A stretch of DNA of 63,760 nt, the filler included, from Hausera hauseri (Eukaryota), in assembly GCA_046269625.1 (NCBI GenBank). It is 11 parts of 11 records of this genome, joined end to end, with 100 filler letters (N's around TTAATTAATTAA, not from the genome) between each part and the next. Parts side by side here need not be neighbours in the genome. Positions count along the whole stretch, not along the records: positions 20,867 to 27,665 come from JBJURY010064440.1; 10 more parts are not named here. The stretch is one strand, 5' to 3'. This document shows positions 9,674 to 56,177 of this stretch, in pieces (the first letter of the stretch is position 1; each line of letters begins with the position of its first letter). A program made the position numbers and the translations under genes. The notes beneath the pieces were generated by a model. The model was not told the origin of the DNA. It did no database searches and saw only the letters and a program-made list of their open reading frames with translations.

Positions 9674-9684
9674 TTGATAGACAA

Positions 9685-12564: not shown

Positions 12565-15500
12565 TCAACAGATTCCTCGTAATTCCGAAAGAAAGAAATT
12601 TTCCAAACTATCGGCTGACTGATATTCACGCGTTGATTTGTCGTAGTATGTTCGACATGCTGTGAAAATTTTGTGTATGTCCAATTTGAAAGAACCCAAA
12701 TTCGAATATTTCATTCGATCTAATCTGTCTCGGGCAGTCGTCAGATCTGAACCGGAAACCATTAGTCATCACCCGTACGGCAAATATAAAAACATACCCA
12801 TCGGTGATCGAACTACTTTGTAATAACCCGGACTTTTCTTTTGATCGACAGGATACAAAAATGACACGGCGTCTTTATGTTTCTAAACAAAACACAAATT
12901 AGATGAAATATGATAAAGTTGTCCAATTAACCATCATTTTATTTAGCAGATCTGACAGCTTTTTGTGAATATCTGAATCGACTTTCCTTTCGTGATCAAA
13001 TTGAAAAGAACTCGACGATTGTTCTTTTTTCATCTTCTTCTTTCCTTTACCCTTAGAACAACTTGGGCATTTATAACTGCCCTCCATCTGTGTTGCTTCG
13101 TTGTCTGTCAGCCCAACACACGTTGGATGGTACCATTCATCACAATAGTCACAGGCAATATACAATCTGAATGTGAATGGTCAACAACCATAATTTTATC
13201 GGGTAAATAAGGTCACTTTGTAGGATCGTATGTTTTTCTACAACTGCAATAAATCTGATTCAAGTCCTCTTCAATTGGTTCCGAAGATTCATCTGATTTG
13301 ATACCGCTACAATTCTGGCATTTCCACGATTTTATCTGAGAAGCTTTCTTTTCGGTCATTCCAACACAAGAAAAATGAAACCAATTTAAACAAACATCAC
13401 AGCCAATGTAGTTTCTAATTTATGTCAATGTCAAAAGAATATTAGTAAAATGAACGTAAAAACTTACAGAGAACGATTGTATGGAGTTTTACAAATACAG
13501 TACAAACTGGATTCGTCATTACTTTCCGTTAATCGCAGTTTCTTCTCTAATTTTATTTCCTTTCCTGATGGAACTGTTGGTTCATGTGCATTTTTATTGG
13601 ATTTCTTCCGAGTTTTGGATGGAGTTTCTATCGGAGATAGATCTTCTTGGTACAGTTCAGCGTCGGAATTATAAGATTCTTTGTATGATCGCTTTTTCTT
13701 CACACCTTTTCTTGAAGACAATCGGTAGTTGTGCGTTGACGAGTCTGTTTCAGCAGCGTTTGCAATGCGTTCTTCGAAGTTTGCATCCACAGCCGGAGAC
13801 GTACTACCGGTTTCAACTTCCCGTTCGGTAAGTTCATCCGAACTACCTCGGTCTTTTTTCGTTTTCTTAATTTTTTTCGATTCTTTCTTCGCTAATTCGT
13901 TGAACTTCAGATCATCCAGTTTGTTTTGTGCGCGAATTGTTTCAATGTCAACAGTGTTTTGTTTCATTGAAATCATTCGATTGGAAATGGAACGTAATCC
14001 GCTGTCAAGATCGGTACATATATCGTCAAATTTGTTATCTTCACTACCCGTAGATTCTGATCGTCGTGACGATGACGTTCTATTACGACCTCGGCCTCTG
14101 CCGCGTATTTTACCGCGACCACGACCGCCAACTGTAAAAGGTACATCTGAGCGTGACATTTCTCGAATGTCCGTAAGGGGAACCGGAAGCACTGCAGGTA
14201 TATTGCTCGACTGAACAATTATGGGAGTTGACTGCATATCACATTTTGTATTTTCCACAGATGGAACTTTAGGAACCGTAGATTCAACGATCAATTTAGT
14301 TGATTTTATATCGTTTTTCATTACAGTCATATCAGGTAGAATGTTTGTCTGCTTTACAGTCGTAATCGGATTTTCAGGTGGGATCTGTGGCTTTTCGATA
14401 ATTGAAGGCACTGAGTTTTGCACCGTTGTGCTACAAATGATATTGTGCTCAATTTTAACAGGTTCGATTACCGGGTTGACTGGCTTTGGCATTTCGATGT
14501 TTGGAACAATCGAAGCAGCAAACGGCATAACCGGATAAGGAATTATTGGTCGTTGTGGAATCGGTGCGTCGTTTTTCTGGAATACGCGTTTATTGAGAAT
14601 AGAAGAAACCAGAGAATTGTGGCATTTAGGTTGAACAACGAAAGACCTTTTCCATTGAACATGCATTAAGAAATCTCTAATTTCCCAAAGTCCTAGATCT
14701 TCTTCACCCAACCATTCTTCGGAATACTTTTTTTCTGAAAGTCGGACTTCGGCCGTTTCTTCGGCGGTTTTGTAACGTGAGCGACGACTACGTGGTTTTG
14801 GAGTTCTATTAACACCTGGTATAAAATTCGGATCAGAATCTTCAGAATCTCGTTCACCGTCATCTGTGAAATTATCAGTATCAGCATAACGTGCCACTGG
14901 CCGGCGACCTCGACGACTCACCCGTTGTTTATTACCTGAATCCGTAGACTCCTCTGGTAATGTCGATATACAAATAGTAAGTAAATATGTGCATCGAGTA
15001 CAATATTTATCTAGTGGCCTCCATCCAATTAATTTCCGTTCCAACATATCCCCATTGGATAAAGTCTCTTTGAAAATATTTGGAAACTGTACTGAAGAAT
15101 TGACATTGTTTTCCCAATTAAGTAACATGTCATCCCAACGCAACGAATACCATAAAATCTTAAGACTCAAAGCTAAAGATGAAAGTCCAACGGATCCGAA
15201 ACTTTTAGATTTGTCGGTAGATTCCGATTGCGGTTCGGTTGCAAAGAGGTTACTGAATTTTGAGATTTTCTCGTAATTTTTGTTGAGAACTTGTGATACC
15301 CCGTACCTCCAAGTTGTGCAGAAACTGGGTCGGGCCGACGGATATGGCCAGTAGACGTTATTTGGACGTTTCTTTTCAACGTCGAACCCAGGGACTTCAA
15401 TTCTACCGCTTGCAAGAACTAAAAGACGCAAGGATTCCTTGCGAAACAGGAAAATATTTTTAATGTTGGCGCTATCTGTCTCATCTGGCCATCGGAAATG

Positions 15501-18434
15501 ATTAGGTGAAGGTAGAACGTATTCTTCTTCTTCTTTGTTAACCAATGCAGATGGTGATAGACGGAAGAGTTTGTATGGTTCTGATGTCTCGTTGTTAACT
15601 CGACTTATTTGAAACTGAAGTTCGGCAATATGTTTGTCTATCTGGTCGAGTTGCTGGTCACAATCGACAATCTCGTTACAAAGCGAATCAATTTCCTTTC
15701 TTTGCATTACTTCATCAGATGTATCTGTAATCGGAAGACGAGAATCGTTATTATGAGTTACTTTGCTTATCGTACGTCGGCCTTGGATTGGTGTTGTCTG
15801 TCGAGGTGTGCTGATCGGGTTATTTTGAAACGTACTCGTTATACCTGTTGTTACTGCACTACCGAATGTACCGACCAATGGTTTGTTTTGCTGCTGCGAA
15901 TCATGAGGTAACAACTTCTTGTACTGGGGCATTGTCTGGCTGCTGCTGATGCGAATTGGCACTTGGATGCCATTGTTATTTATATTACAAATGAGTCCCT
16001 GTTGGCTCAGTGGAACAACCTGGCCGTTGGACAATGTGGATGAACCACCCTGAACAATATTATTCAGAAGCAAAATGGGCTGGCCGTTAGGACTGATCTT
16101 TCGGATTTGCGGCGGGCCCGGCGCTGATTTACCAGCCAATTGAACGTTACCGGTATTGACTAACCGGATGAACGGACTCGTGGGAAATCGTACAAGTTGT
16201 GCTTGAGAAAAACACGGAGTACCAACAACTTGTGTTGGACGAGTGTTGATCATTAATCTATTCGGCTGGTTGCCACTGTTGTTTTGAGAAATATTTACTA
16301 AACACAGTCGATTAACGTTTGCTGAACTGCTGTTTACAAAAAGAGGTTGCTTCATGTTCACGTTTTGCAGAGTTGTCGTATCGGCGAAATTTGTCGAATT
16401 CATTGATGCTAGATCGGTAATGGTTGGATTTGATTTCACTGGAGTATTGAGTTCGTCATTGTCGTCAGCCCCATCAAATTGTGACACGTACGGTATGTTT
16501 TCATTTTGAAATCGCATACGCTTTTCACCAAAGTTGGACATTTCATAATTTGGAAATGGCCGTTTCTTATTGGCTAGCTGACCTCGCCATGATAGCAATT
16601 TACTATGGTCCTTTGAAAGGACATCAAGTCGACTTTCCAAGTCCTGTTTCTTGAGTGTCAATTCGTGTCGTTTGTTTGTAGATTCCGACAGATTTTTCTG
16701 ACACGAATCCAAGTCGTATTCTTTTACCGATCGTTGATATTCATTGACACGCAACGCCAAAATTGAATTGATAGAATGCGTAATATACGCTCCGTTTTTG
16801 TAAAACGTATCATTATCAATTTCACTGGAAATATCGATAACATCGAAAGAGGTTGATGCGAAATTTGGCGTACTTTTAATGGGCAGTTTAATAGCTGGGT
16901 GGAGATAAGGACAATAATTAATGTTCCCTTCGTCAGATATTTGTTGACGTGTTGAACAAAGAGTTGCGTATTTCCCCAAAGTCACTGTCGGTGAAATCCA
17001 ACACCATCCATTTCCGCCCATTCGTCTATATTCCTCGCCTTTTGTTTTCCAAATCATATGTCTCAAAAGTCCCGGGTTTCTCGTTTTAACAACTTCTCCT
17101 TCGGGTTTCTGAGTTTTCCGTTCTTGAATTTTAACACGTTTCTCTTCTTCTCTCTCTGCTGCCGTTATACGTTCCAGATAAAGATACCCCAATAAACCAG
17201 TCCAGCTTTTCTTAAAAGCACACGGCCGAATAGCCGTTTCAAACGTTGAGAGGAATTCAGCTAACGACGAAGCATTACGGACCCGTTGAATGTTGATTAA
17301 CCAATTCTTTCTCTCTGATTTCCAAGCCGGGCACATAAAAGATGAGAACATTTTCGTTTCAATGCTTTCCAAACTCAATCGTAAACATTGGAGCATATTT
17401 AACGGACCACCAAGAATATCATTTTCCGGCCTATTTATTGATAAATTAGAATTCGGCCAAACAGCCCGATTAGTTGGTTGACTGACGAACCAACTAAAAT
17501 CAATGCACTCATTAAACGAAAACTTATTGCCCAAAACCCGTTTCCTGTCTTTATCTTCCTGATGTTGAACTTTAGACAGAGCATCGAATTCCGTTGAATA
17601 TAAATTTTTATAAAACCTCCACATACCCTCATCACCAAGTCGATAAATGATTTTGTCTGATTCTTCAATTAAATTATAATTAACGATATCGGCAACTTCT
17701 TCCAATTGATTAGCACGAGTTTTTGCCGAGAGTCTGACGCGAATTGTAACACCATCAACACTGCGTACCAACAACCCTTCTTGATCCTCAACAACACCGA
17801 CGGGTAATCCGTTTAATGTTTTCAAATCATAGCTCTTTTCCACGATTGTATCAATATTGTCTGGTTCTTTGACAATCAACCCGTCGGCTGCATCTTCATT
17901 CTGTACATCAGTTTCATCACCAACGACATATTTTGCTATCTCTTCAAACAAAGCACTTTCAATTGGTTTCATATTTCCAATTGGAACGGATTTCCGAAAT
18001 TTACTCAATCCATGTTTCGTTAGAGTTTTAGTAACATTCATGGACTTCTTTATTTCTTCCACCAAACTATCGAATACATCACACAATTCTGATTCCCAAT
18101 CCCGAGACAATTGACTGCGCAGTTGTTCAACAGCATTCCACGAACTGTAATAAAGAACGCGTTCATATTCCGGTTTGAAGTTTGACTTGTTTTTCTGTAA
18201 AATAAATTCCGTCAAATTATCAATGTTATCGTTACGTGGTTCGATGATTAATCTTCGGGCAAGGAACCAATAGGTATTTCCAAATCGATCATAACCCAAC
18301 GGAGTTTTCTTGTGTTCCACCAGAGCTTTTTCTCCATCTAAATTACTTTCGTACAATCCGACAACTTTATGTTTAATGCAAATAGGACAGTTCCATTGAG
18401 ATTGCGGTACTGATGGTATACCCAAACAATCCAA
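12565..18434 (-). CDS. BPTF: BPTF/NURF301-like nucleosome-remodelling factor subunit (WHIM region, tandem C-terminal PHD fingers, bromodomain)
   Basis: 4.97-kb exon with PLGYDRFGNTYWFLARR, IWKTKGEEYRRMGGNGWCW, WPYPSARPSF..TW and LWEI. Four GT-AG introns at 13467-13415, 13216-13167, 12931-12883 and 12797-12747 give YCICKTPY..YIGCD.C..WFH..C, YCSCRKTY..YIACD.C.EWYH..C and a bromodomain (FLYPVD...PGYYKVVRSPMDL). Stop at 12565. Confidence 0.93.
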
Positions 18435-18920
18435 ATGCTAAACAGCTGAACAAGATTCACAGCAAAGAACTTCGCCTCTCGTCTGACTTATTCGACATAA
18501 GTCCTCGTGAGTTGTGAAAATTTCTCGAGATATTTCCGCTCTCAGTGATGGACCGTAGACGAATAAATCCAATGAAAATTCGAATACGTTAGTTCGATCG
18601 TCAAGACAAGCGAATAGGTACGATTCTGGAATGGTTATTATCTCTCCAGTTGTATCGATTGAGGTGATGTATTGTTGCCACATTTCCGGCCGTGTCATAA
18701 CATCCATCAAGAAATACGTTAAATTAACGCAATCCTTCTGATCCAATGAACACAATGACGTGTTCGCATATTCATCTTCACGAATTAGCAATTTTAATCA
18801 AGACATGAATTTCTGATAATAACATGGAATTTTCATTGGAAAGCATTGAATATATGAAATCTTCAATTTTAAATGGTGACAAATGTAAAATTTTATAATA
18901 TTGTATCAGTTTCGTACATC
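18435..18920 (-). pseudogene. BPTF: Degenerate BPTF N-terminal segment (DDT domain and first half of PHD1)
   Basis: ILHLSPFKIEDF..LLSEIHV, LIREDE, DQKDCVN..MDVMTRPE, LCCESCSAV*HLDC. Two frameshifts and a TAG stop at 18438. Confidence 0.8.
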
Positions 18921-19110
18921 TCTGACACCATTATTATGAGAATATATAATTCCAAAATACGAAGAATAAACCCAAATATAATTGCAAGGCTCCACGTTAT
19001 AAAAATATTATTAATGAAATTATAAAATAACAATCGACGACATATAAAATTCGGTCAAAATAAAATATCAAAAACAAATAAAAATCACGGATTCGGTAAA
19101 CATCATAAAT
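18921..19110 (-). mobile_element. LTR 3' end plus truncated tRNA-Leu primer-binding site
   Basis: The minus strand reads ...TCATAATAA-TGGTGTCAGA (PBS 18930-18921). Upstream blocks match the LTR end at 55990-56110. Confidence 0.65.
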
Positions 19111-19284
19111 TTTGCCCATATGAAACAACATATAAACATACAAATTAAAAAGCGGATTGTAAGTGCTGGGGCTATCAGCACTTGTAGCCAACAAAAAATC
19201 TGTGGATTTAAACTCGCTTGTTTAAATCCACAGTTTAAAAGTCAGTTGATAGTTTTCAAAAAGAAAAAAAGAAACAAGCACAAA

Positions 19285-20283
19285 ATGCCAGAAATCACAA
19301 GAATCAGGAGTCAGAAAAAGAATGTATTGACCAACGGTGATGGAATCCAAAGGAATGAATTGACCAACAGCGATGGAACAAAAATGAACGAATCGACCAG
19401 CGGCAGCGACAAGAAGAAAATGCCTTCCATGACCAGCAGCTATGATGGAAAGCAAATGTGTACTACCAAGGCACCGAAACTTGGGGAACCCATCTTCAAG
19501 GAAGGTGCGAAGGCCACACTAGTCGGCGTCGCCGTCTCTGAAAGGAATATGCGGCCCGTTCCGAACTACCGGATTCCTAAACGATCCCAACCAGATCTGG
19601 TAACGATACAAGACCTGGACGCCAGTCGAGCCTCGACATTCAAGCCAGACCAGCAATGCCTGACCCGGCGCGATACCGTTTCCCGCGAAAGACGACGCCG
19701 CAACACCGGCAAGCGAGCCCCGTACTGGTCCTACTCGGATTTTCTGACGGTACGGGAGCTGCTACAACGGATCCATTGGTGCGACACCTAGTCAGGTTGG
19801 GGTGGGATGACTCCTGCTCTTTACCCGTGGGAACACTATATCCGTTTTATGAGGACGGGGAAAATCGACGTCTCTTCGACTCGTCTGTTTTCCTGCCGGT
19901 TTTCCTTAGATTGATGGCGGCAGCCGACCGCCTCTACGAATCCTTGGCTTCCTCGGAGAGTCAGTTAATTCGAGGTCGCCGAACCATCGAAGCACTACGG
20001 ACACGGACGTGGAACTCCAGCTCGAACGACATTCGAGCCCATCCACGACTACTTCGCAAACTCAGGTCGTCTCGATCCACTACCGCGGACTCGTATGCCT
20101 CAGCAAACGGCGGTTGTCATGATAATAAACGTTTCGACAATTATACAGCTTTGTTCCTTTTTTTTTGTTTTATTGTTTTGGCGCCACGATGTTATGGGAC
20201 AGAGTTAAGGCCTTACCGTAGATTGTGTTCGAGTTTACTGGTTGCAGCTAGACTGTGGTGGCGCCCGAGTCCGCGGCACCACA
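19285..20283 (+). mobile_element. GC-richer insertion with unknown ORFs and an LTR-like terminus
   Basis: ORFs 19120-19791 and 19656-20288 include short 12-aa repeats (LTNGDG/LTNSDG/MTSSYDG). AATAAA near 20124. Ends GGCACCACA, the reverse complement of the TGTGGTGCC LTR start at 55110. Confidence 0.35.
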
Positions 20284-22165
20284 CATAGAATACGTACATT
20301 TGTTAAAATCAATGATCCGTCTTCGAAATGTCTCCAAAAGATCAATTAAAGTGGATTAAAATACAGTAAACTACAAACTAAAACAGTGGAGGTACAGCAA
20401 CGTGCAATAACAAGTAGAATTTTTACTCATTCAATAGGTGGCACGACGCAAAGGCAGATTTATATCGTGGTGTATCAATATTTTACGCTGCACCAATGAC
20501 TTTCGGTACATAAAGTTATTCACCAAATCTGAAGATAGATCCTCTCTCCTTAGAGTCCGCATGAATTGAACTGAATCAATAACCAAATTGTAAACATTTC
20601 TTAGACGGCACTTGTTCATTTTACACCATAGTTAGTTTTGACTGTCAATGAGAGCTATATCACTGCACGCCTATTTAATCATACACTAATTTCACATATA
20701 ATTTCAATCTCACTTATTTAATCACGTAAATTTCATGTACATAGTAAAGGGCACACCATCGCATATNNNNNNNNNNNNNNNNNNNNNNNNNNNNNNNNNN
20801 NNNNNNNNNNTTAATTAATTAANNNNNNNNNNNNNNNNNNNNNNNNNNNNNNNNNNNNNNNNNNNNTTCGATTAACTGCTAAATTTGAATGTGTGGCATC
20901 GATGCCCTGCAGCTCCGACGATTCCAGTCGCAGCATTACGAAAGCTCAGTTTCACTTCCATTCCTTTTGGATCTGATCCTCTGCCATCCATACAAGCATT
21001 TACAATTCTGATGTACGATACGGCCTGAAACAAAAGTACTACATTATACGCAGCCTTCGGTGCTCATACCACAGAGCACCTCAGGAAGGTTGTTTTCCAA
21101 GATTACGGTTTCTTTCTCTGTGCTTTTTAGTCAAAAGTGAAATATTTTATATTTCGTTTATAGTACAACATAGATGGAATAGTAAAATCCTGAGACACTT
21201 ACATAAAAGATTTCTTTAGTCTGGACGATTTCGTCTGAGCACTTTGTTTGTGACTGAACCAGTTTCACGTCTTAAAGTTTAGACAAATTGCTTCCAAATA
21301 CTGAATATTTCCATATTCTGTTCAAATGTTTCATTTCATTGGTACATTTTTCGAATGTCGAAGTCTATATAATGATGGAAATTTAATTTTGCCAGTCAGA
21401 TTTTCTAGTACAACATAGCTTATAGAGAATTAAAATGATCTAAGCTGCAACTGCTAATCAAAAAATTTTAATTTTACATTATTCGAGATAATTATCTTGT
21501 CAGTAACTATCATTTATTGATTTTATTTTAGTTTGTAAATTACATTATCAAATTAATTCCGAATGTCTGTCTATTCTTGAAACGTACTGAGATTATTAAA
21601 TATAGCTTTTCATAAGAATTAGAAAATTTTGAATCTTCATCATGTTCAGTCTCCGTCAATTTAAAGGGAGCGACTTATCTTTCAACATTTGAATTAAATT
21701 GGCAAGAGAACGAGAGATAGAGAGCACATCCTTATCTATCCTATCTTATTGGTAATGTTTAGGGGCAATGCACACGTGCGTCTCTTTACTATGGTTTAGT
21801 TGGTCGTACGTTAGTGATTTGGGACGCAATCCAACAGAAGGTTGGGCCACTACCAAATTAATTTCGAACTTGATTTAATAAGCCAACATGTTTCAAAGTA
21901 TATGTTGACCACAAATAAAAAATAATCATATGGAAATTAACCAAATGAAATATGCCAGTATTTATTTTTAGTCAACAGTATAAGTAGTCATTGTAAATAA
22001 ACTCATTCAATAACCACTACTGTGTTAGTATTTGAAGGTGGGCCCTATCCAACACCCAACTATAGCAATGATGAATTACACTCAAATTTATTTAAGATTA
22101 TGCAGGTAAGTTCTAACGTTCTCATTAGAATGTTTGCACTAATTTTATTATGCCTGTACTGCGTG

Positions 22166-22796
22166 TGATTCCTGTGCAAGGTTAAATAGGTCTCGTCTTA
22201 TCTATAGAGTTTAACCTGGATTTTATATCTTAGTGTGAGTCAAGTCCCTCTTAAAGAGCGACGAAAAATTATAAGCCAGTTTAAAATACAAGTTTATTAA
22301 CAATAATAACAAATACCAAGACGAATCGAATTTCCCAATGGGTCGACTTCCAAATCTGATTATCGGGCTGCTCACCGAGAACGTTACGAATCAAGTTTTT
22401 CAAAATGATCTGGCGCTTCCAGTCGCTCGATCAATATTCAAGTTCCTTTCGCTTTTCACTATTTACACACTTCAATACTTCTCGTTCCAACTGATTTTTC
22501 ACTGCCTTATATAGTTGGCAATTCGTGGGAGAATCGATTATGATTAATTTTCAATATTTCTTCTGGCAATTTATAAATAATTCTTTTCAATTTCTCTTGA
22601 TTATTCAACATTGTGGGATAATTTGTAATCGTTTTCTGAACAATTTATGTGCATATTTGTGAGCGTAAGCCGATTAGCCCATTCAATTTAATAATAATTT
22701 GTACTTAAATTCTGATTAATATTCTAAATATTCGTTTTCGGTTTCACTTTTATTTACATTTACACATTTTGTTACCATCTACGGCCTTTTATATCA
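22166..22796 (-). repeat. 3' LTR of Gypsy copy A
   Basis: Starts TGATAT immediately after the PPT. Contains TATATAAG (about 22512-22505) and AATAAA (about 22298-22293) on the minus strand. The candidate end ...GAATCA at 22166 gives TGAT/ATCA termini; the end position is tentative. Confidence 0.7.
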
Positions 22797-22808
22797 TTTC
22801 TCCTCCCT
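22797..22808 (-). other. Polypurine tract
   Basis: AGGGAGGAGAAA directly abutting the TG of the LTR. Confidence 0.75.
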
Positions 22809-22887
22809 GAACGGCACTCTCGGATGTGCCCATTGCGTCAGAAAAGGTGCCGCGTCTTAAGGGGTTCATTCGTCCGCGTAAGTCCGC

Positions 22888-23304
22888 TTACGAATCTGAT
22901 TCATCGCGTGGCGATCGCATTTCTAATCGGTATGCTGCAGTAGGCCTCGGAGGAAGTATCTCCATTATTTTATTATTCTCTGCGTTAGAGAAATATCGTA
23001 ATCTCGTAGATTTGACCCGACATACTGGGCAGGTCGTCTTCCCGTTTTCCAGGGTCCATATTTCTAAGCAACACCGACATTTATTGGTGCAATCCTTATT
23101 ATCTAGTACTACGAATCCTTGATAGAGGCTTGCGTCGCAAACGGAGCATTCTTCCTTTTCGCCTCTATCTAGATCTACAATATCTTGATTGACTTCAATT
23201 CGTTCGAACACAAGTCCTTGTTTATCCTGGTATAGATAACCATATAATTGTTTTTGCTTGGGATCTATGGAACTCTTTTTGGGGTCATCCGATACGGTTA
23301 CCAA
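22888..23304 (-). CDS. RING-finger protein or domain inside the Gypsy element
   Basis: CSVC-x15-CTNKCRCCLEIW-x7-TCPVCR is a RING-type spacing with the conserved W and CPxCR. The His ligand position is altered. Confidence 0.75.
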   Translation of the reverse strand: MVTVSDDPKKSSIDPKQKQLYGYLYQDKQGLVFERIEVNQDIVDLDRGEKEECSVCDASLYQGFVVLDNKDCTNKCRCCLEIWTLENGKTTCPVCRVKSTRLRYFSNAENNKIMEILPPRPTAAYRLEMRSPRDESDS

Positions 23305-23309
23305 CGTTC

Positions 23310-25306
23310 ACTCGATGATTTCTTGTTGGTCTAAATTTAATATTCCTGTCTTGTATATTTTCTTCAACTGAACACGAACTTGGGTGTATACCGGGATAGT
23401 TAGTCGTTTGGTACCGTTTCTCGATTGAAATATTGTGCTAAATATTTACCAATTTGTGCATCTTCTCGGACAACCATTTCCGCTTACGATTCTCCTCGGG
23501 ACAGTGGAGACGTAAAATATTGCTTCTTTAATCTTTCTTTTACTATAATATTCGGCCATGACGAGTATTTTGGTGTATTCCTTAATTTGACCGAACTCCG
23601 TTACTACTATGGGGGTCAGTTCTTTCCAATTCTTTCTGTGAACATTTACCTCGGTTCTCGGTGATTCATAACGAGAAATTTTCATTCCCTGTTCGTTGGG
23701 CTTTTCGACTTTCTGCCGTTTCGGTTTAACCTTCTGGCTTGTTGCTTCCTCTTGAGTATTTGGTGCAAGCTTGCTGCTAGGTAGGTTTATCTCCGGTATG
23801 ATTGTTACTGGTTTTATTTTTCTTCCTGCTTATATAATCACAAAGGGAAAGTTTCGTCTTCTGTATCTTCTGGGGTTTTCTGGTTCTAATTTTCGTAAGT
23901 TTAGCTTCTACTCTTCTTTTCTGGTGGGAAATTTGATTATGTACGGTTTTAGACTTATCATAATTATTAGGGATTTCGTCGTTCCATTTGACCTTGACTA
24001 GTCGATTGGGTTTCTTGGTTATTTCTGCTTGGTTTTATCTGTTTCTGTTTGGGCAATTGGACTGGCTTGGTTTGAACAGTGATTTGAAAATTGTTACCTC
24101 TTTGTGGACCTATATGCCTGTGTACAGGGTATTCACTGAATCCTCTGCGAAATTTCTGCATCAAATTGTTGGGATTGATGTCAGACATCAAATTCTACAC
24201 GGGATTTCTTGGCTTCCATTCATGATCCCATCGTAGAGAAACGTAAATATCTCTTACGAGTTTTGTTCTCCGACTTGCTGTGAGTATCTTATGGAAACGG
24301 AAATATTCGCAATTTATGGCTTCTAACATCATTTTGAATTGGCATTCTCGTGATGCCAGAGGAAGCAAGCATCCTCTTTTTTCCATTAGAGTGCTCTCTG
24401 TTCGACTTACGACTGTCGGATTGCGACTCAACTCGCGGATTTCAGCTATATATTCTTGTCTGATTCCTAGCCTTTTCATCTCATGCACTGTATATCCTGC
24501 TACAATGAAATCATACAAGCAATGGCTTATGTCTTGTATTTCAAGGAAATCCTTACCCTTTTCGAGTTGCAACTTTGTAATTCCTGTAACATCAGGAAAG
24601 GTATCCTTCACTTTAGTTCTGGGCGCTATTATCTTGTTTATTACTTTCTCCGTTTACATTTCTGATGGAAACTGGTGTATACTATCCATCTTCTTTCTCT
24701 CCATAGTTCACTGCTATGATCCTAATATTTCTGCCGTGTGGAACTAGTCTAAACGATTTTCCATGCTGTTCTATTTTGTCTTCCGAAGGCTTCTGCAGGC
24801 ATAAGATTTGTGGTAAGGATTTCATTATTTGAGTACGTAATGTCAGTTCAAACATGATTTTTGTTGGAATTTCTGCTATTCTAAACTCTAAAGCATAATC
24901 CATGAGGTTAGAGCAGCGTAGCTCATAGGTACTAAATTTCCATTGTTGGCCCTTTGGAGTACTCCAGGGCTGTCCTACGATACTGTACTGGATCTCGCCA
25001 TCAGCGACATGTATGCACATTTGCTGATGTGTCGGTTGATATGGAATCAAATCTCTCAACAGGTATGCTTGTGCATCCTTTGAGTTTCTCATTTTGTATA
25101 AACGAACTAGTCGGTTTTCTTCTAAGCCTCACTTTAATTCATAAACTCTCATGGTCAATTTCCACATAGGTTTTATTTTTCAGGTTTTCTCCAATTTGAC
25201 GATATAGACTTTTCGACGGGAGATTTAAGACTGTCACGTGCTGTTGCAAGAAATCATCTATCTTGTGTCTGGGACCGTGTACTGGAATCTTCGCTTTCTC
25301 GGCCAT
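23310..25306 (-). pseudogene. Unknown accessory ORF(s) of Gypsy copy A, broken by stops and frameshifts
   Basis: Chain of co-oriented ORF fragments (25306-25139, 25092-24682, 24611-24195, 24191-23967, 23685-23446) starting MAEKAK after a splice-acceptor-like site. Confidence 0.55.
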
Positions 25307-25411
25307 ATTTACTCTTCTGAAATAGAAATAAAGATCAATCCTAAGGCAGATCATCGTCTTGAAACAAAACATTTTCTCTGTCTGATGATAGGATAACCAG
25401 ATCTGTAGTTG

Positions 25412-26730
25412 TCAGGTTATTCTATCATAAAGTTCGTCTTGGTAACCTTTCACCCGTTTACCTCCTTGCTGATTTTTGCAGTCCTTATTACAATTTTTGG
25501 AAACTAGAAAAATCGTCTCGGTTATCATGGCGAGAACGAAGGTTGAGAAACTAAATATAGATATTTTCGTTAAGTTATTCGTTTTGGTAGAATTTTCCGT
25601 TGTAATAGAAATTTGGATGATAGTATCCTTATTTTGCATTACTCGAATTTCGTTCGGGGTTCGTCACGTAAGGGTTTTATGTTTTCTACCTTCTGCGGTA
25701 ACTTGAATTATATAGTCGTATTGCGGTCGTAGCGATTTACACTCAGTGTTCTGACTATCTTTTCTTAACATCACAATTCGGCTAGTATACAGGGTACGAC
25801 ATTCAATTTTGATCTCGTAATTTAACGTTTCATCGACGTAAAATAGTATTCTGTTATGGCCTACCAAAAATTTAACAGGTATATTTTCTAGTTCTCTCTC
25901 GGGTAGTTTACTTGAAGTGACAACATCTGTAGAAATAGTTGCGCTTGAAATAGATGGTTTTCTCGTAGTTATTGGAAGGGAAATTTTCCATACTCGAATT
26001 TTTGGATAATATTTTCTTAAGTACTTTGTTCGTTTGGATAATTATTATATAGATCGAAATTCACTTTGTGCTCATGGCCCAGCGGTATTTTGCAACACGG
26101 GTTTGGTTGGTTCTGCGCGATATAACAGTATTTCACTAAGGGAGTTGATTTCTTTATCGGTATAAATTGAATGGAAATTTGTCTGTCGTCTGGTAGTTCT
26201 ACTTTGGTTTTTATCTGTATACATTGGTTTTTGATGTCTTTGAAGATTCTGATTACGTTATGATCTAAAATTCATCTTAGTGGATCGGTACTTTGAATTA
26301 TATCGTTCGTATTAGTTTGACTTATCTCATTCTGTTTAAGCATATCTATACTGAGCTTCGTAAGTATATGGACTTGAATTCCACGTATATTATAGTAGGA
26401 CATTTGCAATTCGTATTTGTATTTTCGTCAAAAATCTAACCTTCAGCATTTCCGTTGAGCTCCGTGAGGGAAATAACAGGTTCTTACTGCAGCGTTGGCT
26501 TTGTCTATGAACAATATTCGAAATTTTACATGGTCTCTAACGGGTTTGCTTGCTTTAAACCAAGCGCAGGGTTTTCCCAATACATATCGTAAACTTAGTG
26601 ATTTTAAATTTGGTATATCTCTTCGTTTCTCTGCATGTTGTTCTTCGGACAATCCGGAAATATTTTTCGGCATATATGATGCAATTAGAGAGCGCTACTA
26701 TTTGCACGTATGATATAGGCCTAGTGCTTA
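25412..26730 (-). pseudogene. Env-position type-I membrane protein with FN3-like domains (copy A)
   Basis: Hydrophobic signal, two Cys-rich repeats, S/T linker, KSLRPQYDYIIQVT, TM ISIFSFSTFVLAMITETIFLVS and tail ELYDRIT. Homologous along its length to 32061-33395. Confidence 0.75.
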
Positions 26731-26779
26731 TTGAGGACGTTTTCTTTTTTATGCTACGATTTTGATTTTCGTTAATTGA

Positions 26780-27665
26780 GCATAGATTATAACGCTTATT
26801 CGGCGTAATTTCCGTTCTAATAACTCTGTATTGATACGAATTTGCCGTTTTTGTTAATATAAACTGTAGTCGTCGTGGTTCGGATAACTTCGTAAGGTCC
26901 TCTTCCGGTACAAATAAGTTTCAAGGATGTCTTTCTTAGCTACTGAATAATGTGCATAAACCCAACTTGCTTGTTCTAGATCATGCGGTTTATCTTTCTT
27001 GTCATACTGTCTTTTAAATTGCTCGTGGTATCCTTGAGATACTTCTTTTGCTACTTCCAAACACTTTTGCAGTCTTGTCTGTAGCACTTCGGCAAAATTC
27101 TGTTCTAAGTCTTCTGGATTTGCTGTATACGGTATCATTCCTAGATCCGTCAGTAATAGGGCTTTTCTGCCACATATCATAAAGAATGGAGTAAATCCAA
27201 TCGAAGGGTGTGGTGTAGTGTTAATAGCAAATTGTGTACCTTCTAAAAATTCATTCCAATCTTTTTGGTCCTTCACGACTATTGTTGATAAGATTCGTAT
27301 GACTGTTGCGTTCATGCGTTCGACCATTCCGTTACATTGAGGGCGATAAGCTGTCGTGGTTAATCGTTCAATTTCAAATATTCTGGTAATTTTATCGAAT
27401 AATTCACTTGTAAAATTTCTTCCTCTATCTGTCAAGATTTGTTCGAGGGCCCATATCTACAGACAATTTTTCTTACTACGGCTTCTGCCAGAGTTTCAGC
27501 TTTTTGATCCATTAATGCCATTAGTTCGACAAAATGAGTTAATCGGTTTATACATGTCAGGATGTATTTATTACTTCTATGAATTGTAGGCAAGAGTCCT
27601 ACAAAATTCATGGACATCGCTTGCATCGGTCTGTCCGGTACATTTATCGGTTTGAGTTCGGCAAT
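26780..27665 (-). pseudogene. Gypsy integrase (copy A)
   Basis: SM(N)FVG.LP, TDRGRNFTS, TTAYRPQCNGMVERMN, W...L....FAINT, GFTPF and a GPY region. Confidence 0.93.
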
Positions 27666-27765: not shown

Positions 27766-27875
27766 TACACAATATGCTTTTCATTTTCTGGAATGCTGTT
27801 TTTGCCTGTGCAATTCTGCTTTTGATTTCCGTGTCACATCTGACATCTGATGTTACAAGAGTTCCAAGGTTGATT
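27766..27875 (-). mobile_element. Non-LTR (RTE-like LINE) RT C-terminal fragment
   Basis: The minus strand translates LGTLVTSDVRCDTEIKSRIAQAKTAFQKMKSIL. Confidence 0.6.
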
Positions 27876-28789
27876 ATAACAGTCTTGACTTTTCTTTCCT
27901 TTTTGGTTCAGCTCTTGTGTATTTTTTTTAATGAGCTTGTGAGGGGAATCTGAGAAACCAAAGCAAACTATACCTAACAAAATACGAGGCAGCCCCCGGA
28001 AAGTAACAACAATAACCAGTACAGAATAACCAGGGCTAGACTGAAAGAATCAGGCGCAACATTTCTAATGGACAGACGGTGCACGAATAAGACGAGGGCA
28101 CACAATCATTTATACGTTAAATGTCTGAATGTTGGAGGTAATTACGTGGAGAAATAGCCTGACGTGTTTAGAGACACTATAACAAATTTTGTTCTGGAAT
28201 ACGTACTGGTTAATATCTTTATTACAGAACGGGCACTACTTTCCGAAAGGTCCTGGTATCACCTTATACAATCTTACAAGAAGGAAGTCTGCATTACAAT
28301 GAACTATACAAGGTAGAAGAGGACGATGAACATTGCAACAGAAATGTCAGCTAGGGCTCTGATAGCTTGGGGAAAAGCAAGAAAGACGCACAGTGGTCTC
28401 GTCTCAGGTAACTTTCTGTGTCAAAGGTAGGGAGAAAGAAAGAGTGAGACACAACCACACGTTCTGTTTTTTTCATCACAATTTAGGCGACTGTATTACT
28501 ATATCTTCAAGTTGACAACGACTGCCTGATGAGAGAGCATTACATGCAGTCATTCTAAAGGATTCACACAGCATATTGGTGAAGTTTGATCAGCATAAGC
28601 TTCGGCAAAAAAAAAAAACGGCTTGTACTTCTTGATCACCGCCGTGTTGAAAGTGCTACGTAGATATACAGCCCAGATCGTGATGGGGTATGAGAAAGCG
28701 GTGAGATATCAGTCAGATGCTCGTACAGGAGATTGATGTCTCTGAGACATTAGAACAGAATGTGGAGGAGTAATTGACGAGTGTGTATG

Positions 28790-31700
28790 CGAGAATAATG
28801 GACATCAGTATACGCAGGAGTAACAGAAGGAAATGGCATGTGGGGAGAGAACGGAAATGCATTCTGGCGGGAAAAAAACCATGAACTCACAATCACAGAA
28901 TTCCTGTGATAAATAGTAGGCACGAAAATAGAGGAATCAGTGCCACGGGCGTTAAAGAATGAAAAAGGGAAAGAAGTAAAAAATAAATAAAAGGATGCTA
29001 GAGCGTACTTTACCAAAGTTTCTGAGGAGATAAGTGAACAGGAAGAAATGGTAGCTCTGAGAACAGTGGAAGTATGGCTAAAGACTAAGAATAAAATGAA
29101 AAAAGCATTAATGCTGTTTGACGATGTTAGTACCAAGAGCTTCGTCGATTCAAAACTATGTGAAGAACTAGGTGTCGATAAGAAAACAGAAAGGTTGACG
29201 ATAAATGTCTTCGGAGGGAAACAGACTGAGATGTCTTTTGACAGGGTCAAAATGGTGTTGATAAATATTGACCGATCGATAGAAGTCCAATTTAAGGCGA
29301 TAGCTATGAAAAATCCAACCGGAAAGATGAGGGCAGTGAACTGGTCCACAGAAAAACAAAATAGTTCCATATAAAGCATTTAAGGTTCCCCACATTGTCA
29401 AACAACTTAGAGGTGAATGGTATTGTTGGGGCGAACTTTACAGAGTTACACAAGTCAATCAAAGAGGTATATAGCAAAAGCGATGCGCCGGTAGCGCGAT
29501 TAACTCCGTTAGGCTGGACCTGTGGAGGACAAATAAAAAAGGAAAGGAAAAACATAAATAGTAATTTCATAAGGACTTTTTGGACAAGGACAGAGAAAAT
29601 TCAAAATAATCTGAGCCACTTGTGGGAGGTCGAGTTTAACATGAGCGCAAACGAGTTTGAGAGGAATAAACAAAATGAAGAGGCAATAAAACGGATATTA
29701 AAAGAAACGACTCATGAAGAAAATAGGTACTGCGTGCCGTTACCATGGAAGGGAGTAATACAACCTGAAATGGAAAACAATAAATGGATGGCAGAAAAAC
29801 GATTGAAAACTCACAAGAATAAGTTAGATAAAGATGAGGAGGCAAAAGCGACCTATGAGAAGGTAATAGAAGCACATACGAAATAAAAATATATCAGAGT
29901 GGTAAAAGAACAAGAGGAACAAGAGACGGCTTGGCTGTTTTCACATTTTCCGGCCATGAAAGTTGATAGGCAAACCACAAAATGCCGGATAGTTTTCGAT
30001 GCTGCTTTAAAATATCGGGGAAAGTGTCAGAACGATTTACTGAATCCTGGACCGAAATTACAATTGGACATTATAGACATTATATTAAGGACGAGAAAAC
30101 GGCCATGGGTTGTCATATGTGACATCCAGAAAATGTTCCTGCAGAAAGAGGTGAAACAAGAAGACAAGAAATACTTAAGGTTTCTTTGGTATAAGGAAAG
30201 GAAACTCAAGACATACGAGTTTAATCGGCTAGTATTTGGGTTGAACGCCTCTCCATGTCTGGCACAATTAGTATCAAGACATAACGCTGAGAGATTCAAA
30301 GACAAATTCCCCAGAGCCGTAGAAACAATAGAACACTCTAATTACATGAACTATTGCATCGACTCAATCGGCAGTAAGAATGAAGCCGTATCGTTATACA
30401 GCGAACTAAATGAGATTTGAAAAAAGGCTGGGATGAAACCACACAAATGGGTGTCAAACTGTAATGAATTGATAAAGATAATACATACCGCGAGCCAAGC
30501 CAAGGAATTCCACATACTGGAAAAAACTGATATTGTTACCAGGACGTTGGGGATGAAGTGGAAGATCGAAGAGGATACATTCAAGTTTGGAAACCGTAGT
30601 AAACAAGAAATAGAGATAACTAAAAAAATTCTATTAAGCGCATTGGCGAAAATGTTCGACCCGTTAGGTTTTCCCAGTTGTTATATGTTGTTGGGTAATG
30701 TGTTTCTACAACAGCTGTGGATGATAAAAGTAGATTTGGATGAAAAAATCCCAAACAAATTGAGTGAGAAAATAAGAGAATAGATAAAAGGTATGGAAAA
30801 TAATAAAGGTGTCAAGGTATCTGTATTTTAAGGAAGGTACGGACAGTCAGGTACATATTTTCTGCGACGCATTAAGGTGGGATTATGGGGTGGTCGCTTA
30901 TTTAAGATCGACAGTGGAAGGGAAGATTAAAGTGGTAATCATATGTTTGAAAGGTAAGGTGACACCGGTGAGGTTAGTCGTCATACCAAGACTGGAATTG
31001 ATGGCAAAATGTATTGGAGTTAAGTTAGAGAGAAAAGCGAGAAGAACTCTGGACAACAACAAGGAAGAGATACAGTACTGGATGGACAGAATGAACGTAT
31101 TATATTGGACAAAAGGCTGTAACAAATATTACAAAACGTTCATTGCGAACACAGTAGGATTTATACAAGAAGAAACGACTGGGAAACGATAGAACTATGT
31201 GAAGTCGGAACATAACCAAGCGAACTATCTTTCTTGGGGACTATACGTCGACGAACTACGAGACAAAATAGAATGGTGGAATGTTCCAGAGTTCCTCAGA
31301 AAACTAAAAGTTCAATGGCCAGTTCAACCCAGAAAACTAATCAAACCAAAGAATGAGAAGAGAAAGGATGCAATTATATTGACGCCTTTGGGAGAGCGAG
31401 TCACAGGAGGAGAGTATCAGAATCATGATAATGAGGCAAATGTCGAACAATGTGCCTGGTCTTGTTAGGAAGAAGTGATTAAACAGAAAGAGAAATTCTT
31501 CTGAGAGAAGGAAATAAATTAATTGAAGTACAATTAAGAAGGAAAGCAAAACTAGAAATAATCAAAGAGTACCAAGAAAAGGAGTTTTGCACAGAAATAA
31601 TGGATTTGAGGTCTAAGAAGGAGATTAGCTACAAGAGCGTTATTGCAAAATCTAACCCCGTACTAAATGACGAGGGGATATTGAGATCGTGTAGTCGGTT

Positions 31701-31924
31701 GATAACGACATCTTGGTTAAATTGGGAACAAAAATACCCTATAATATTGTCCTCGAAGAATACTGTAACGAAGCTAATTATTGAGGACACATATTTAAAT
31801 TTACGACATGCGGCGAGAATCAACCACAAAGTTGCGGAATTAAGTAATAGGTATTGGTTCCCCAAGATGAAGAAGCTCGTCAAAGCTTACCAAAACTATT
31901 GTATAATCTGTAGGAGGTCAAATG
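28790..31924 (+). mobile_element. BEL/Pao LTR retrotransposon pol, degenerate
   Basis: Protease-like LFDD.STKSFV, TPLGW, RYCVPLPWK. RT TTKCRIVFDA, CDIQKMFLQ, FGLNASP. FDPLG, FCDA, IPRLEL (Pao RNase H/A17). Integrase zinc-binding RH..INH..R.W....C..C. Confidence 0.93.
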
Positions 31925-32060
31925 NNNNNNNNNNNNNNNNNNNNNNNNNNNNNNNNNNNNNNNNNNNNTTAATTAATTAANNNNNNNNNNNNNNNNNNNN
32001 NNNNNNNNNNNNNNNNNNNNNNNNCTCTGTCTGATGATAGGATAACCCGATCTGTAGTTG

Positions 32061-33395
32061 TCAAGTTATGCTATCATAAAGTCCGTCTCGGTGCCCTTTT
32101 ACCCATTTATCTCCCTTCCGATTTTTACAGCGCTTATTACAATTTTTTGAAACTAAAAAAATTATCGCCGTTAATATGACAAGAACACAAATTGACAAAC
32201 TTAATATAGCTATTGTTGGTAAACTGCTTGACTCAATAGAACTTTTTGTGGTAAACGCATTTTGTGTACCAAGATCTTTATATCTCATTACTTTGATTTC
32301 GTTGCCAAGAGTTCGTACTGTAAAAGTTTTCGGTTTTTTACCTTTCTCGGTGATTCGGATTACATAATCGTACTGCGGTCGTAATGACTTGCGTTGCGTT
32401 TCCTGATTATTCTTTCTCAGGACCACAACTTGGTTGGTGTGCAGGGTGCGACATTCAATTTTGACGTCTTGAGTTGACATTTCTTCAGTGTAAAGTAGAA
32501 TTTTATCACTTTTTGACAAAATCTTAACTGGTATGTTCCATAGTTCTTTCTCCAGCATTTCATTCGAAGTGACGATCGCAGTAGTGCAACTTGTACTTAG
32601 AACTTTAGATGGGTTTCTCGTAGTGGTTTGGAAAGGAAGCTTTTATATTTCGTTTTTCGGACGATATCCCCATAAATAAGTACTTCGTTCTTCGGGGTAC
32701 GTATTATACAAGTCGAGTTGCAAATGATACTCCTGTCCTAGTTGCAGTACACAGAACACACTAGGTCGTCGTTTGGACAAATAACAATACTTCGGAATAA
32801 AAACCGAAGAATTCAATGGTATAAATTGGACAGAAATTGGTCTGTCTCCAGGCAACTCTATTTTTGTCTCAATTGGAAAACACTGGTCCTTTAACTTTTT
32901 GTAGATCCCAATAATGTTGTAATCTAACAGCCGTTTAAGTGGGTCAGTACTTTAGATTATCTCATCCGTCTTGGCTCGATTCGTGTCATTTCTTTGAGGC
33001 ATCCTTATTAGAAGTTCAGTAAGTATATAGGCTTGGGCTCCCGGTTGGTTATAATAGAACATTTAAAGTCTGTATCGGTAGGTTTGTCCGAAATTCAAGG
33101 CACAACATTTCTTATGAACTCCGTACGGGAATTCGTATGTTCTCATCGTGTATCTAGTTACAAATATTATTTGAAATTTCACATGGTCCTGAATAGGTTC
33201 ACTTGCTTCGAACCACGCACATGGCTTACTCCAATCCATATCGTATACTCTAAGTGACTGTAAATTTTCAATATTCCTCCGTCTTGCCACATACTGTAAT
33301 TTTTCGGTTTGAGTTATCGACTTCGCCTTCGGCATATATGAAGCGATTAACGATAAGGCGAGGATTATCTGCACGTATGATACTGGTTTGGTCAC
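32061..33395 (-). pseudogene. Env-position type-I membrane protein with FN3-like domains (copy B)
   Basis: Signal VQIILALSLIASY, domain 1 KPCAWF..KKCCALNFGQTY, domain 2 KYCY..FCVLQLGQEY, domain 3 SLRPQYDYVIRIT, TM IAILSLSICVLVILTAIIFLVS and tail GLYDSIT. Confidence 0.78.
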
Positions 33396-33419
33396 TATCG
33401 TCGACGTTTCTTTTCTTTA

Positions 33420-35900
33420 TCAGTTTTGCTTGATCGCAAATTGGGACGTTTAACGGGTCTTATCTCCGTTTTAACTACTCTTTTAATCGATATGACCTCT
33501 TCCTTGCCGTTTTTATTTATATAAACCGTGGTCGGCGTAGCTTTGTAACTTCATAAGGTCCTCTACCTGTCCTAGTAAGCTGAAGAGACGTTCCTTTCTT
33601 TGCTACTGGATAGTATACGTAAAACCAGTTTCCGGGTTCCAGATCGTGTGGTTTAGCCTTCTTATCATATTGCTTCTTGAAGTGTTCCTGGTATTCTTTA
33701 GATAGTTCCTTGGCTATCTCCCAACACTTTTGTAATCTCAATTGCAGTACCTCGACAAAATTTTGCTCTAAATCTTCCGTTCTTGTTGTGTATGGGATCA
33801 GTCCTAAATCTGTAGGCAATACAGCTTCTCTTCCGTACATTATAAAAATGGAGTGAATCCTGTTGCCGAATGTGGAGTAATATTAATGGCAAACTGTGTA
33901 CCTTCTAAGAACTCATCACAATCTTTCTGGTCTTTGCGACTACTGTCGATAAGATTCGTATAACTGTCGCGTTCATTCGTTCGACCATTCCATTACATTG
34001 GGGATAATAAGTTGTGGTAGTTAATCGTTCAATCTCGAAAAGTTTTGGTAATTTTGTCGAACAATTCGCTCGTAAAGTTTCTTCCTCGGTCTGTCAAGAT
34101 TTGTTCGGGTGGCCCGTACCTGCAAATGATTTTCCGGACTACTGCTTCTGCCAAGGTCTCGGCCCTTTGGTCTAATAACGCTATAAGCTCGACGAAATGA
34201 GTCAATCGGCCTACACCGGTCAAAATGTATTTGTTATTCTTGTGGGTCGTAGGCAATGGTCCTACAATATCCATAGACATTGCTTGCATTGGTCTATCGG
34301 TCACGTCAATAAGCTTAAGCTCGGCGATGTAGCCTTTAACTTTTCTTTGTTTGGTTGCGCATATTTCGGAAGCATTCACACAATTCCTTACGTCAATATA
34401 AATGCTCGGTCAATAGTACTTATTTAATATCTTTTCCAATGTCTTTTTCCACGACATGTGTCCGGCTAAGTATGATTCATGTTCAGCCATGAGGGCTTCC
34501 GTTCATAATCCCTTCGGTATGACGACTAATTTTCGTTTTTTTTTGTTCACAGTATAACACATTTTCGTTGTTAAAATCTCCGGCGACGCAGTATTTCTGA
34601 CCATATCGTCCTAGGTGTTTCCGTAACTGATGACCTTTGGGTGTTACGTTGGTATCAACAAATTCGATAATCTGTTGTATAACCCTGTCTTTTCTCTGTT
34701 CGACAGCAATCTTTAATGCCTAATGTGAGAGTCCGTTGTCTTTCTACTAAATCTTCAAGGTGTGCTTTCCTCATTAATGTAACTGCGCTTGTTTTGGTTT
34801 TAAGTCTCGATAGTACGTCAGCATCGACATGCTTATTTCCGGGTTTGTATTGGAATTCAATATTGTAACGTGAAATTTCCTCGATCCATCTGTTAAGTCT
34901 ACAAGTTGGATTATTTGCACTACCCTTCAAAGTCGTAACTGCTTTATGATCAGTAACGATTACGCTCTTCTGTCCGTATACGTACTCATTAAAATGTCGC
35001 AAGGCTTCTTTTACGGCTAATGTTTCTAACTCTGTAACGGAATAGTTCTTCTCTACTTTCTTTAGAGAACGTCCTCCGTAAGCAATCAGGTGTTTTAGAT
35101 CCTCGTCGTCTCGTTTCTGAGCTAATTCATATTCGATACGTTCCTTACTGGCGTCTGTTTTGATTATAAACGGTAGGTTGAAGTCAGGATATCTTAAAAC
35201 ATGTTCACTAGTGAGAATTTTCTTCATTTCATTAAAAGCCTTTTGTTCGACATCGGTCCATCTCCATTTGATCCCCTTTTTTAGCATACCATATAAAGGT
35301 GCGTTTATCTTCGCATTGTCCGGTACGTAAGTAGCACAATATCCACACAATTCCAACCAGTGCCTCAATTCTTTTTGATCCTGGGGTTCCATACAATCCG
35401 ATATCTTACTTAATAGTGATTTATCCGGCTTCGACCCTCCTTCTCCGACTATATGTTTAAGGTACGATACAGCATTTTGGGCCCATTTACACTTCTTGGG
35501 ATTCAGTTTCAATCCCGCTTGCTCCAATCTCATGAGTGTACCTTCAATGTCTTTTAAGTGATCCTCTTCCGTTTTCGACGCAATCATAACGTTGTCCAAG
35601 TAGCCGAATGCGTGTTCCAGTCCCATTAGCATCTTATTCATCATGAGAGTAAAGATGGCTGGTCCGATAGTGATTCAAAATGGCATAACATTAAATTCGT
35701 ATATACCGTCGTGTCTTAAATGCCGTTTTTCAACGATATTCCTCCTCTATCTCTACTTGCCAATATCCAGATTGCAAATCGAGCGTGGTGAACCATTTAG
35801 CTCCCGAAAGTCTATCTAAGGCTTCCTTTAGCGACAGTAACGAAAAAGATTCCTTCATCATAAGTATATTTAATGCTCGATAGTTGATACAAAATCGGTG
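33420..35900 (-). pseudogene. Gypsy pol (RT-RNase H-integrase), copy B
   Basis: RFCINYRALN, LDLQSGYWQV, YLD(N), LKLNPKKC, TDAS, NYSVTELE, TDHKA, YKPG..H..AD.LSR, HH/CC zinc region, SMDIVGPLP, TDRGRNF and GPY. Confidence 0.95.
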
Positions 35901-36078
35901 TGTGAGGAGGAATTCAGGAAGCCAATATAAAGTGAGGAAATTCATAAGAGGAGGAAAATAAGGTTCATTTACTGATTGNNNNNNNNNNNNNNNNNNNNNN
36001 NNNNNNNNNNNNNNNNNNNNNNTTAATTAATTAANNNNNNNNNNNNNNNNNNNNNNNNNNNNNNNNNNNNNNNNNNNN

Positions 36079-56129: not shown

Positions 56130-56177
56130 ATTGGATTGCTTGAAATCAGTAATCGGTAATGAATTGAAAATTACAAA

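Follow-up and report, generated by a model that had tools for sequence, protein, structure and literature searches.

We analysed a 63,760-nucleotide (nt) stretch of the Hausera hauseri assembly GCA_046269625.1 (hereafter, the window, filler included) and found in it a Ty3/gypsy (Metaviridae) retrotransposon that carries a cassette of accessory coding DNA between integrase and a probable 3′ long terminal repeat (LTR). The window consists of short unplaced contigs linked by N44-TTAATTAATTAA-N44 spacers, and adjacency across spacers carries no meaning. Two copies of the element are present, both dead and decayed and both on the minus strand: copy 1 is the contig 20867-27665 (6.8 kb), and copy 2, 69% identical to it, is the contig 32025-35978. 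The first gene of the cassette, open reading frame 3 (ORF3), is a gene of the family and, as read from sequence, encodes a type-I membrane protein; it has evolved under purifying selection. In both copies its stop codon stands in a conserved readthrough context of the CARYYA type (UGA followed by CARYYA) with an open frame behind it. From the motif, the open frame and the conservation we infer that this stop may be leaky, and we propose, with slightly less than even confidence, that it yields two products, one a short surface protein, the other a long form that is anchored in the membrane and resembles an E3 ubiquitin ligase. The signal that would join ORF3 to the downstream frame was absent from the first-pass annotation of this DNA and is new in this analysis.

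ORF3 encodes a membrane protein conserved in the family

ORF3 of copy 1 has five in-frame stops and frameshifts near 26690 and 26020-25975, and no ATG ahead of the signal; the two copies of the gene are 48-51% identical. The first-pass annotation had suggested measuring the ratio of nonsynonymous to synonymous substitutions (dN/dS) between the copies. For ORF3 it is 0.28 (bootstrap 0.20-0.36; 424 codon pairs), and pN/pS was 0.44 in the coding frame against 0.91 and 1.10 off-frame. A profile search of 1.84 billion representative proteins returned exactly two relatives (E=2e-97 and 5e-45), both ENA records: P0034, intact at 479 amino acids (aa), and P0035, which is partial. P0034 matched ORF3 of copy 1 by tblastn at E=4e-72, and ORF3 of copy 2 is 35% identical to it over 472 columns. 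A word-based homologue search found nothing among 2558 candidates; it is insensitive here, because it missed P0034 although that protein was present. P0034 has a Met start, a signal, four N-glycan sequons and one transmembrane (TM) segment, and in all four ORF3 sequences the tail ends in Tyr-x-x-Ile-Thr, a Tyr-x-x-hydrophobic motif. The whole cassette had been called a family trait on the strength of the second copy. This holds for ORF3, through its dN/dS and through P0034 and P0035, but it does not extend to the 2-kb region and the RING finger behind it, since copy 2 ends 39 nt past the ORF3 stop; family-wide occurrence is shown for ORF3 only.

A structural model of ORF3 (mean pLDDT, the model's predicted local confidence, 40) contained beta-sandwiches at residues 66-138 and 297-378. 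All 42 nameable Foldseek matches listed were ectodomains of the fibronectin type III (FN3)/cytokine-receptor type, six of them at E<=0.001 (best E=1.1e-4), and they included FN3 ectodomains from cytokine receptors, fibronectin and RPTPs. VIA matched an FN3 monobody at Z 8.1 (root-mean-square deviation 2.8, 81 residues aligned), where the usual background is Z 7-8. Modules 1 and 2 are related as repeats and agree in Cys spacing: five of six cross-tests gave 0/200 shuffles and the sixth 1/200, for slices placed around a motif picked by eye. Matches listed from a viral fold library were FN3/Ig-repeat proteins from unrelated viruses at low TM-score, with no retroelement Env among them. All in all, the model indicates that the ectodomain is likely FN3-like. 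Some results pull the other way: a mean pLDDT of 40 is low and module 2 is not resolved in the model, no repeat relation of module 3 to the other two was detectable, the Pfam fn3 match stays below threshold and was obtained with P0035 only (E=0.12, 13 bits vs a cut-off of 25), and PDB sequence searches with ORF3 gave no match.

A surface protein encoded behind pol could also be a true envelope of a new type, serving attachment or fusion in an infectious, retrovirus-like agent. The env position, the signal, TM segment and four sequons of P0034 and the Tyr-based tail motif of all four sequences would suit this, and ORF3 evolves faster than integrase (dN/dS 0.28 vs 0.07). However, P0034 lacks an R-x-K/R-R site, its only hydrophobic stretches are signal and TM, the ORF3 relatives have no fusion-protein match in Pfam, and the fold matches are FN3 ectodomains. 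We consider the envelope explanation improbable and a role of ORF3 as fusogen unlikely; it may serve in attachment without fusion. The earlier description of a retrovirus-like lineage with a surface protein is thus upheld for the membrane protein and not for an envelope.

The ORF3 stop codon lies in a readthrough-type context

Among the 6530 stop triplets of the window, 16 (0.25%) are followed by CARYYA, and two of these 16 are the ORF3 stops. Counted from the stop, 38 of 39 nt are identical between the copies, at a divergence that brings synonymous sites near saturation (dS 1.1); the most conserved other 39-nt windows reached 34 in ORF3 (1287 windows) and 36 in integrase (764 windows). The 12 codons past the stop show no synonymous change between the copies, and in copy 1 the frame stays open for 90 codons with coding-like codon usage. 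In a reporter, CARYYA after UGA was functional and gave ~15% readthrough (PMC4132726). An imperfect stem of 16 bp surrounds the stop in both copies, and the three differences in the 45 nt of this hairpin either fall at a mismatch or keep or make a G-U pair.

Several points weigh against readthrough. CARYYA was recognised post hoc, and the two copies are of common ancestry. The hairpin could by itself account for the sequence conservation without any readthrough; its z of -1.9 to -2.6 is a selected value, the best pick from 12 windows. Because the stop lies within the hairpin, the structure cannot stand during decoding, and a purely 3′ readthrough-stimulating structure is unsupported (z 0.06). 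In addition, the first 36 codons past the ORF3 stop contain three in-frame ATGs and a splice-acceptor-like site.

A stop codon placed inside a conserved, imperfect 16-bp stem might instead be bypassed at the RNA level, with the hairpin serving as a substrate for A-to-I editing that recodes UGA, or it might be a packaging or splicing element with no role in translation. Either would make CARYYA a coincidence at a frequency of 0.25%, and there was no Rfam match. ADARs disfavour a G as 5′ neighbour, which counts against editing of UGA. We regard this explanation as very improbable.

The acceptor-like site has a bearing on a second alternative, in which the element, like complex retroviruses, has separate accessory genes. 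ORF3 would encode a surface adhesin or decoy receptor, and ORF4 (or ORF4 plus an ORF5) a soluble RING regulator translated from a spliced or internal-promoter RNA. The pyrimidine tract with CAG at 25319 and the purine-n-n-ATG adjoining it would provide the entry, the low-complexity stretch at ~24100-23700 could be intergenic as well as a linker, and Tor elements have spliced and internal-promoter env RNAs (PMC4402516). Such separate genes would leave unexplained the UGA-CAACTA, the in-frame continuation and the 12 codons without synonymous change; moreover, such an ATG accompanies 13 of 103 acceptor-like sites in the window, and one of three looser sites in copy 1. Separate genes are in our view rather unlikely, and this route and readthrough may coexist.

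The ORF4 path ends in a RING-like finger

Behind the ORF3 stop, a model that had learned its codon usage from copy 2 traced one continuous ORF4 path with no intron-like gap. The path changes frame about four times (near 25130, 24690, 24070 and 23850) and contains in-frame stops at 25141, 24197, 23448 and 23310. It includes an all-beta piece at 25128-24685 and a basic, low-complexity linker at ~24100-23700. The ORF4 pieces have no TM-like stretch (hydropathy maximum 0.92), which fits the readthrough proposal, because a cytoplasmic tail requires this absence. The all-beta piece (minus strand) carries a QxW-type motif, gave Atlas ricin-B/beta-trefoil clusters (0.86-0.87, low recognition), and matched a PDB sequence over 24 residues (E=1.5). 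Fold searches with its single-sequence model (pLDDT 37) matched nothing (best Z 4.7), and a word-based search found nothing among 38 candidates, of lengths 165-525 only. A ricin-B-like beta-trefoil is accordingly a weak lead in this piece, not confirmed by folding.

The RING finger placed by the first-pass annotation at the end of the cargo was recovered as a RING-like finger below the Pfam threshold. Its Trp, Pro and Arg hallmarks are present by eye. Among PDB sequence matches the listerin RING was best (E=0.0048), and the 45 rows were mostly RING E3 ligases with some PHD fingers; Atlas gave no usable match for this piece. Other results tell against a RING-bearing tail: the zf-RING_2 match is weak (E=0.0055, 17.4 bits, under the cut-off of 27.3), seven of eight expected ligand positions are filled, and no ORF4 homologues were found in Pfam, NCBIfam, PHROGs, PDB, Atlas (searched with two pieces) or the word-based search with one piece. 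The finger is known from one copy, and ORF4 is read as a single ORF from that one broken copy only.

ORF4 and the finger might also be a passenger of copy 1 alone, either a retrocopied host gene or an unrelated insertion, with ORF3 as the family gene. The end of copy 2 so soon after the ORF3 stop, the lack of an ORF4 homologue in the searches and the impossibility of a dN/dS all suit this view. But the junction is common to both copies, the coding signal runs on without an intron-like gap, the strand skew is like that of pol, and the final stop lies only 80 nt ahead of the polypurine tract (PPT); also, the word-based search with ORF4 was of the same kind as the one that missed P0034. A passenger is, in our judgement, quite improbable.

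Returning to the leaky stop, we envisage an animal (invertebrate) Ty3/gypsy lineage that would carry a host-manipulation cassette 3′ of pol, inside the element. ORF3 would be expressed subgenomically; its product would cross the membrane once and display three FN3-like modules at the surface. Most ribosomes would stop at the UGA and produce a short form with a tail of ~30 residues, and a minority would read through it, adding as many as ~840 cytoplasmic residues, if ORF4 is a single ORF, with the RING-like finger at their end. The long form would then be a receptor-shaped, membrane-anchored ubiquitin ligase. Its ectodomain may bind a ligand or a surface protein of the host, and its RING may tag the bound target or signalling partners for endocytosis or degradation, with the outcome that the element persists or spreads between cells. 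We advance, at less than even confidence, the reading that this is an undescribed, deep-branching animal Gypsy lineage with a cytokine-receptor-shaped protein switched by readthrough between a short decoy or adhesin and a long membrane E3.

The cassette belongs to a Ty3/gypsy element

In copy 2, Pfam gave the pol order RT-RNase H-integrase (RT, reverse transcriptase) of the Ty3/gypsy type, with rve at E=1.4e-9 and RVT_1, RT_RNaseH and Integrase_H2C2 also passing the cut-off; in copy 1, rve was matched at E=0.06 and the GPY motif was seen by eye. The two integrases are 78% identical in amino acids, with a dN/dS of 0.07 (190 codon pairs) whose bootstrap lower bound is 0.0 owing to dS saturation. 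The solved structure closest to the RT-RNase H (RT-RH) of copy 2 is Ty3 Gag-Pol (E=1.4e-36), compared with 4e-29 for a caulimoviral-type enzymatic polyprotein and 1.9e-18 or weaker for retroviral proteins. By pol order and by the nearness of its RT-RH to Ty3 the element is a Ty3/gypsy retrotransposon. The nearest database relative of this RT-RH is only 37% identical (32 matches), and in a tree of 34 rows, built with 33 unnamed relatives and no reference clades, it sits on a branch of 1.41 outside every supported group.

The order on the minus strand of copy 1 is integrase, membrane ORF, coding DNA, RING-like finger, PPT and probable LTR, which confirms the order given by the first-pass annotation. 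About 3.8 kb of decayed coding DNA lie between integrase and PPT. On the minus strand, 92% of 22888-25411 lies in stop-free runs of at least 70 codons, vs 14% in shuffles (0/300 as high) and 67% on the plus strand; in the flank 20867-22165 the share is 0%. The AT skew is A-rich and unbroken (0.19-0.31) from integrase into the putative LTR, up to the middle of it, and falls to 0.05 in the flank. On the coding coverage and the A-rich skew, the cargo, located between integrase and PPT, is counted as inside the element, as had been claimed. The PPT alone is weak evidence, because purine runs of at least 12 followed by TG are not rare in the window (12 on both strands, three others inside the element). 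The putative LTR contains TATATAA at 22513 and AATAAA at 22298, and no second copy of it lies within the window; since purine runs with TG are common and a second LTR is not present, it is probable, not proven. No target-site duplication, primer-binding site or gag is visible; both contigs stop inside the element, and the DNA upstream of RT lies outside the window. A tblastx comparison of the cargo with the remaining window gave eight short high-scoring segment pairs (chained statistics) and no real match.

At 26920-26700 (minus strand) the integrase-tail frame of copy 1 enters the ORF3 signal segment stop-free; neither copy has an ATG in this region. Fusion of ORF3 to pol was dropped as unproven, the frames being different in copy 2 and P0034 being a stand-alone protein with its own Met. 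The features of both copies are collected in Table 1.

Table 1. Features of the two element copies, in coordinates of the window
Feature	Coordinates	Strand	Remarks
Probable 3′ LTR, copy 1	22166..22796	-	631 bp; TGAT...ATCA ends, unpaired
PPT, copy 1	22797..22808	-	AGGGAGGAGAAA; TG directly after; 80 nt past the final stop codon
ORF4 path, copy 1	22888..25411	-	~841 codons; opens in the ORF3 frame; traced by codon usage
RING-like zinc finger, copy 1	23020..23148	-	End of cargo; zf-RING_2; Cys positions
Splice-acceptor-like site, copy 1	25306..25332	-	Pyrimidine tract + CAG (25319), purine-n-n-ATG right after; alternative ORF4 entry
ORF3 stop context, copy 1	25384..25428	-	UGA (25414-25412) + CAACTA = CARYYA readthrough motif, within conserved RNA hairpin
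ORF3, copy 1	25412..26725	-	Predicted signal peptide, three FN3-like beta-sandwich modules, one TM helix, short tail
Integrase core and C-terminal GPY-motif region, copy 1	26800..27665	-	Truncated by contig end, frameshifted
ORF3 stop context, copy 2	32025..32063	-	UGA-CAACTA, then 12 open codons to contig end
ORF3, copy 2	32061..33395	-	Single frame, three in-frame stops
pol (RT-RNase H-integrase), copy 2	33420..35978	-	Decayed; Pfam; Ty3 Gag-Pol structure match

Other features of the window

Further transposon remnants lie on other contigs. Decayed ORFs at 5950-10874 (+), two pieces of which had no meaningful Pfam match, resemble by eye integrase, penton and major capsid genes of Polintons or adintoviruses. 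A fragment of a mariner-like transposase lies at 2972-3616 (+) and a BEL/Pao-like decayed pol at 27766-31924 (+), both recognised by eye. An integrase from another Gypsy family (53890-54555, +; tblastn) shares its contig with a retropepsin-like fragment (59048-59599, +; RVP E=0.025). A diverged tandem repeat array of 7 kb occupies 41875-48872, with a self-identity of 62-70% at many offsets, and its flank 48873-49586 is seen again at 57280-57971 (81%).

A host gene is represented by an unbroken, very divergent BPTF/NURF301-like exon of 1,657 codons at 13464-18437 (-), with WSD at E=5.6e-6 and a PHD fragment. Together with the mariner, BEL/Pao and Polinton-like remains, this exon suggests that the host is an invertebrate animal. 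Two overlapping, GC-richer ORFs at 19048-20288 (+), of 247 and 235 aa, had no Pfam match. Two intron-free ORFs amid repeats, judged by eye O-GlcNAcase-like (56163-57284, +; 373 aa) and vigilin/KH-like (50894-51574, -; 226 aa), are possibly retrocopies or host fragments carried by transposable elements.

Comparison with known systems

An LTR element with an FN3 membrane gene, or with a RING linked by readthrough, was not found in the open full-text literature, on the basis of result lists and abstracts; Repbase/Dfam or supplements may hold the family. The planarian giant gypsy elements Burro and GYPSM1 are among the closest known systems, with ubiquitination/apoptosis cargo that includes a RING-BIR IAP in Burro1 (PMC6431247, PMC13465017). 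Burro is also a Gypsy element with host-modulating cargo including a RING, but its cargo precedes pol within a polyprotein of ~4,900 aa that has an F-like env, whereas here the cargo lies 3′ of integrase and comprises an FN3-like membrane protein and a putative leaky-stop joint, with no BIR match. The first-pass annotation did not recognise the architecture as described: multi-domain RING cargo in Gypsy elements was already known from Burro, and the present arrangement was not found in the literature.

Metazoan errantiviruses have in common with this element RT-RH-integrase followed by a type-I membrane glycoprotein gene. In a survey of env-carrying Ty3/gypsy errantiviruses, 1,512 of 1,512 elements had an F-type or gB-type Env, and it worked with env baits and a limit of 10 kb (PMC13524379); because of both, it would miss elements of this type. 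ORF3 gave no F or gB match in Pfam, and fold searches with its pLDDT-40 model favour FN3. The bdelloid rotifer elements Vesta, Juno and TelKA likewise have captured ORF3s behind pol that are not env, and some of these contain TM segments; they are GDSL, DEDDy, F-like or short TM proteins under near-neutral evolution, and the text consulted reports one ORF3 and mentions neither RING nor readthrough (PMC5408684). In contrast, ORF3 here is under purifying selection; P0034 and the cargo frames have no GDSL or DEDDy match in Pfam.

Oikopleura Tor elements are also Gypsy-like and express a membrane glycoprotein from a third ORF by splicing or an internal promoter, but Tor Env is furin-processed and fusion-like, and a further ORF is not mentioned in the text consulted (PMC4402516). 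Bypass of an in-frame stop for a downstream ORF would be shared with SIRE1 (Sirevirus) and tobamoviruses, and the CARYYA motif is known from tobamovirus readthrough (PMC2194720, PMC4132726). SIRE1, however, is a Copia element of plants, and its leaky stop separates pol from env (PMC2194720), whereas here it would lie behind a membrane-protein tail in an animal Gypsy element. Gypsy elements with captured cargo including a RING, such as Burro and those with rotifer ORF3s, are known; this arrangement did not turn up in the literature searched.

RNF43/ZNRF3 and herpesviral K3/K5 are membrane-anchored RING E3 ligases whose cytoplasmic RING down-regulates surface proteins. The proposed long form would work alike, with no sequence relation shown; in those proteins the RING is near the membrane and the ectodomain of PA type, whereas here the RING would be ~750 residues away and the ectodomain FN3-like.

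Membrane genes behind pol are usually labelled env; ORF3 is under selection, FN3-like by its model and apparently non-fusogenic. It widens the range of cargo of LTR retrotransposons, and env-baited surveys may miss this class. If a leaky stop joins ORF3 to the RING, the two would make up a compact system, with two products, by which host cell-surface signalling could be manipulated. Were this true, the element would be a retrotransposon with tools for receptor down-regulation so far known from large DNA viruses, and ORF3 would stand for a new class of non-fusogenic gene in the env position.

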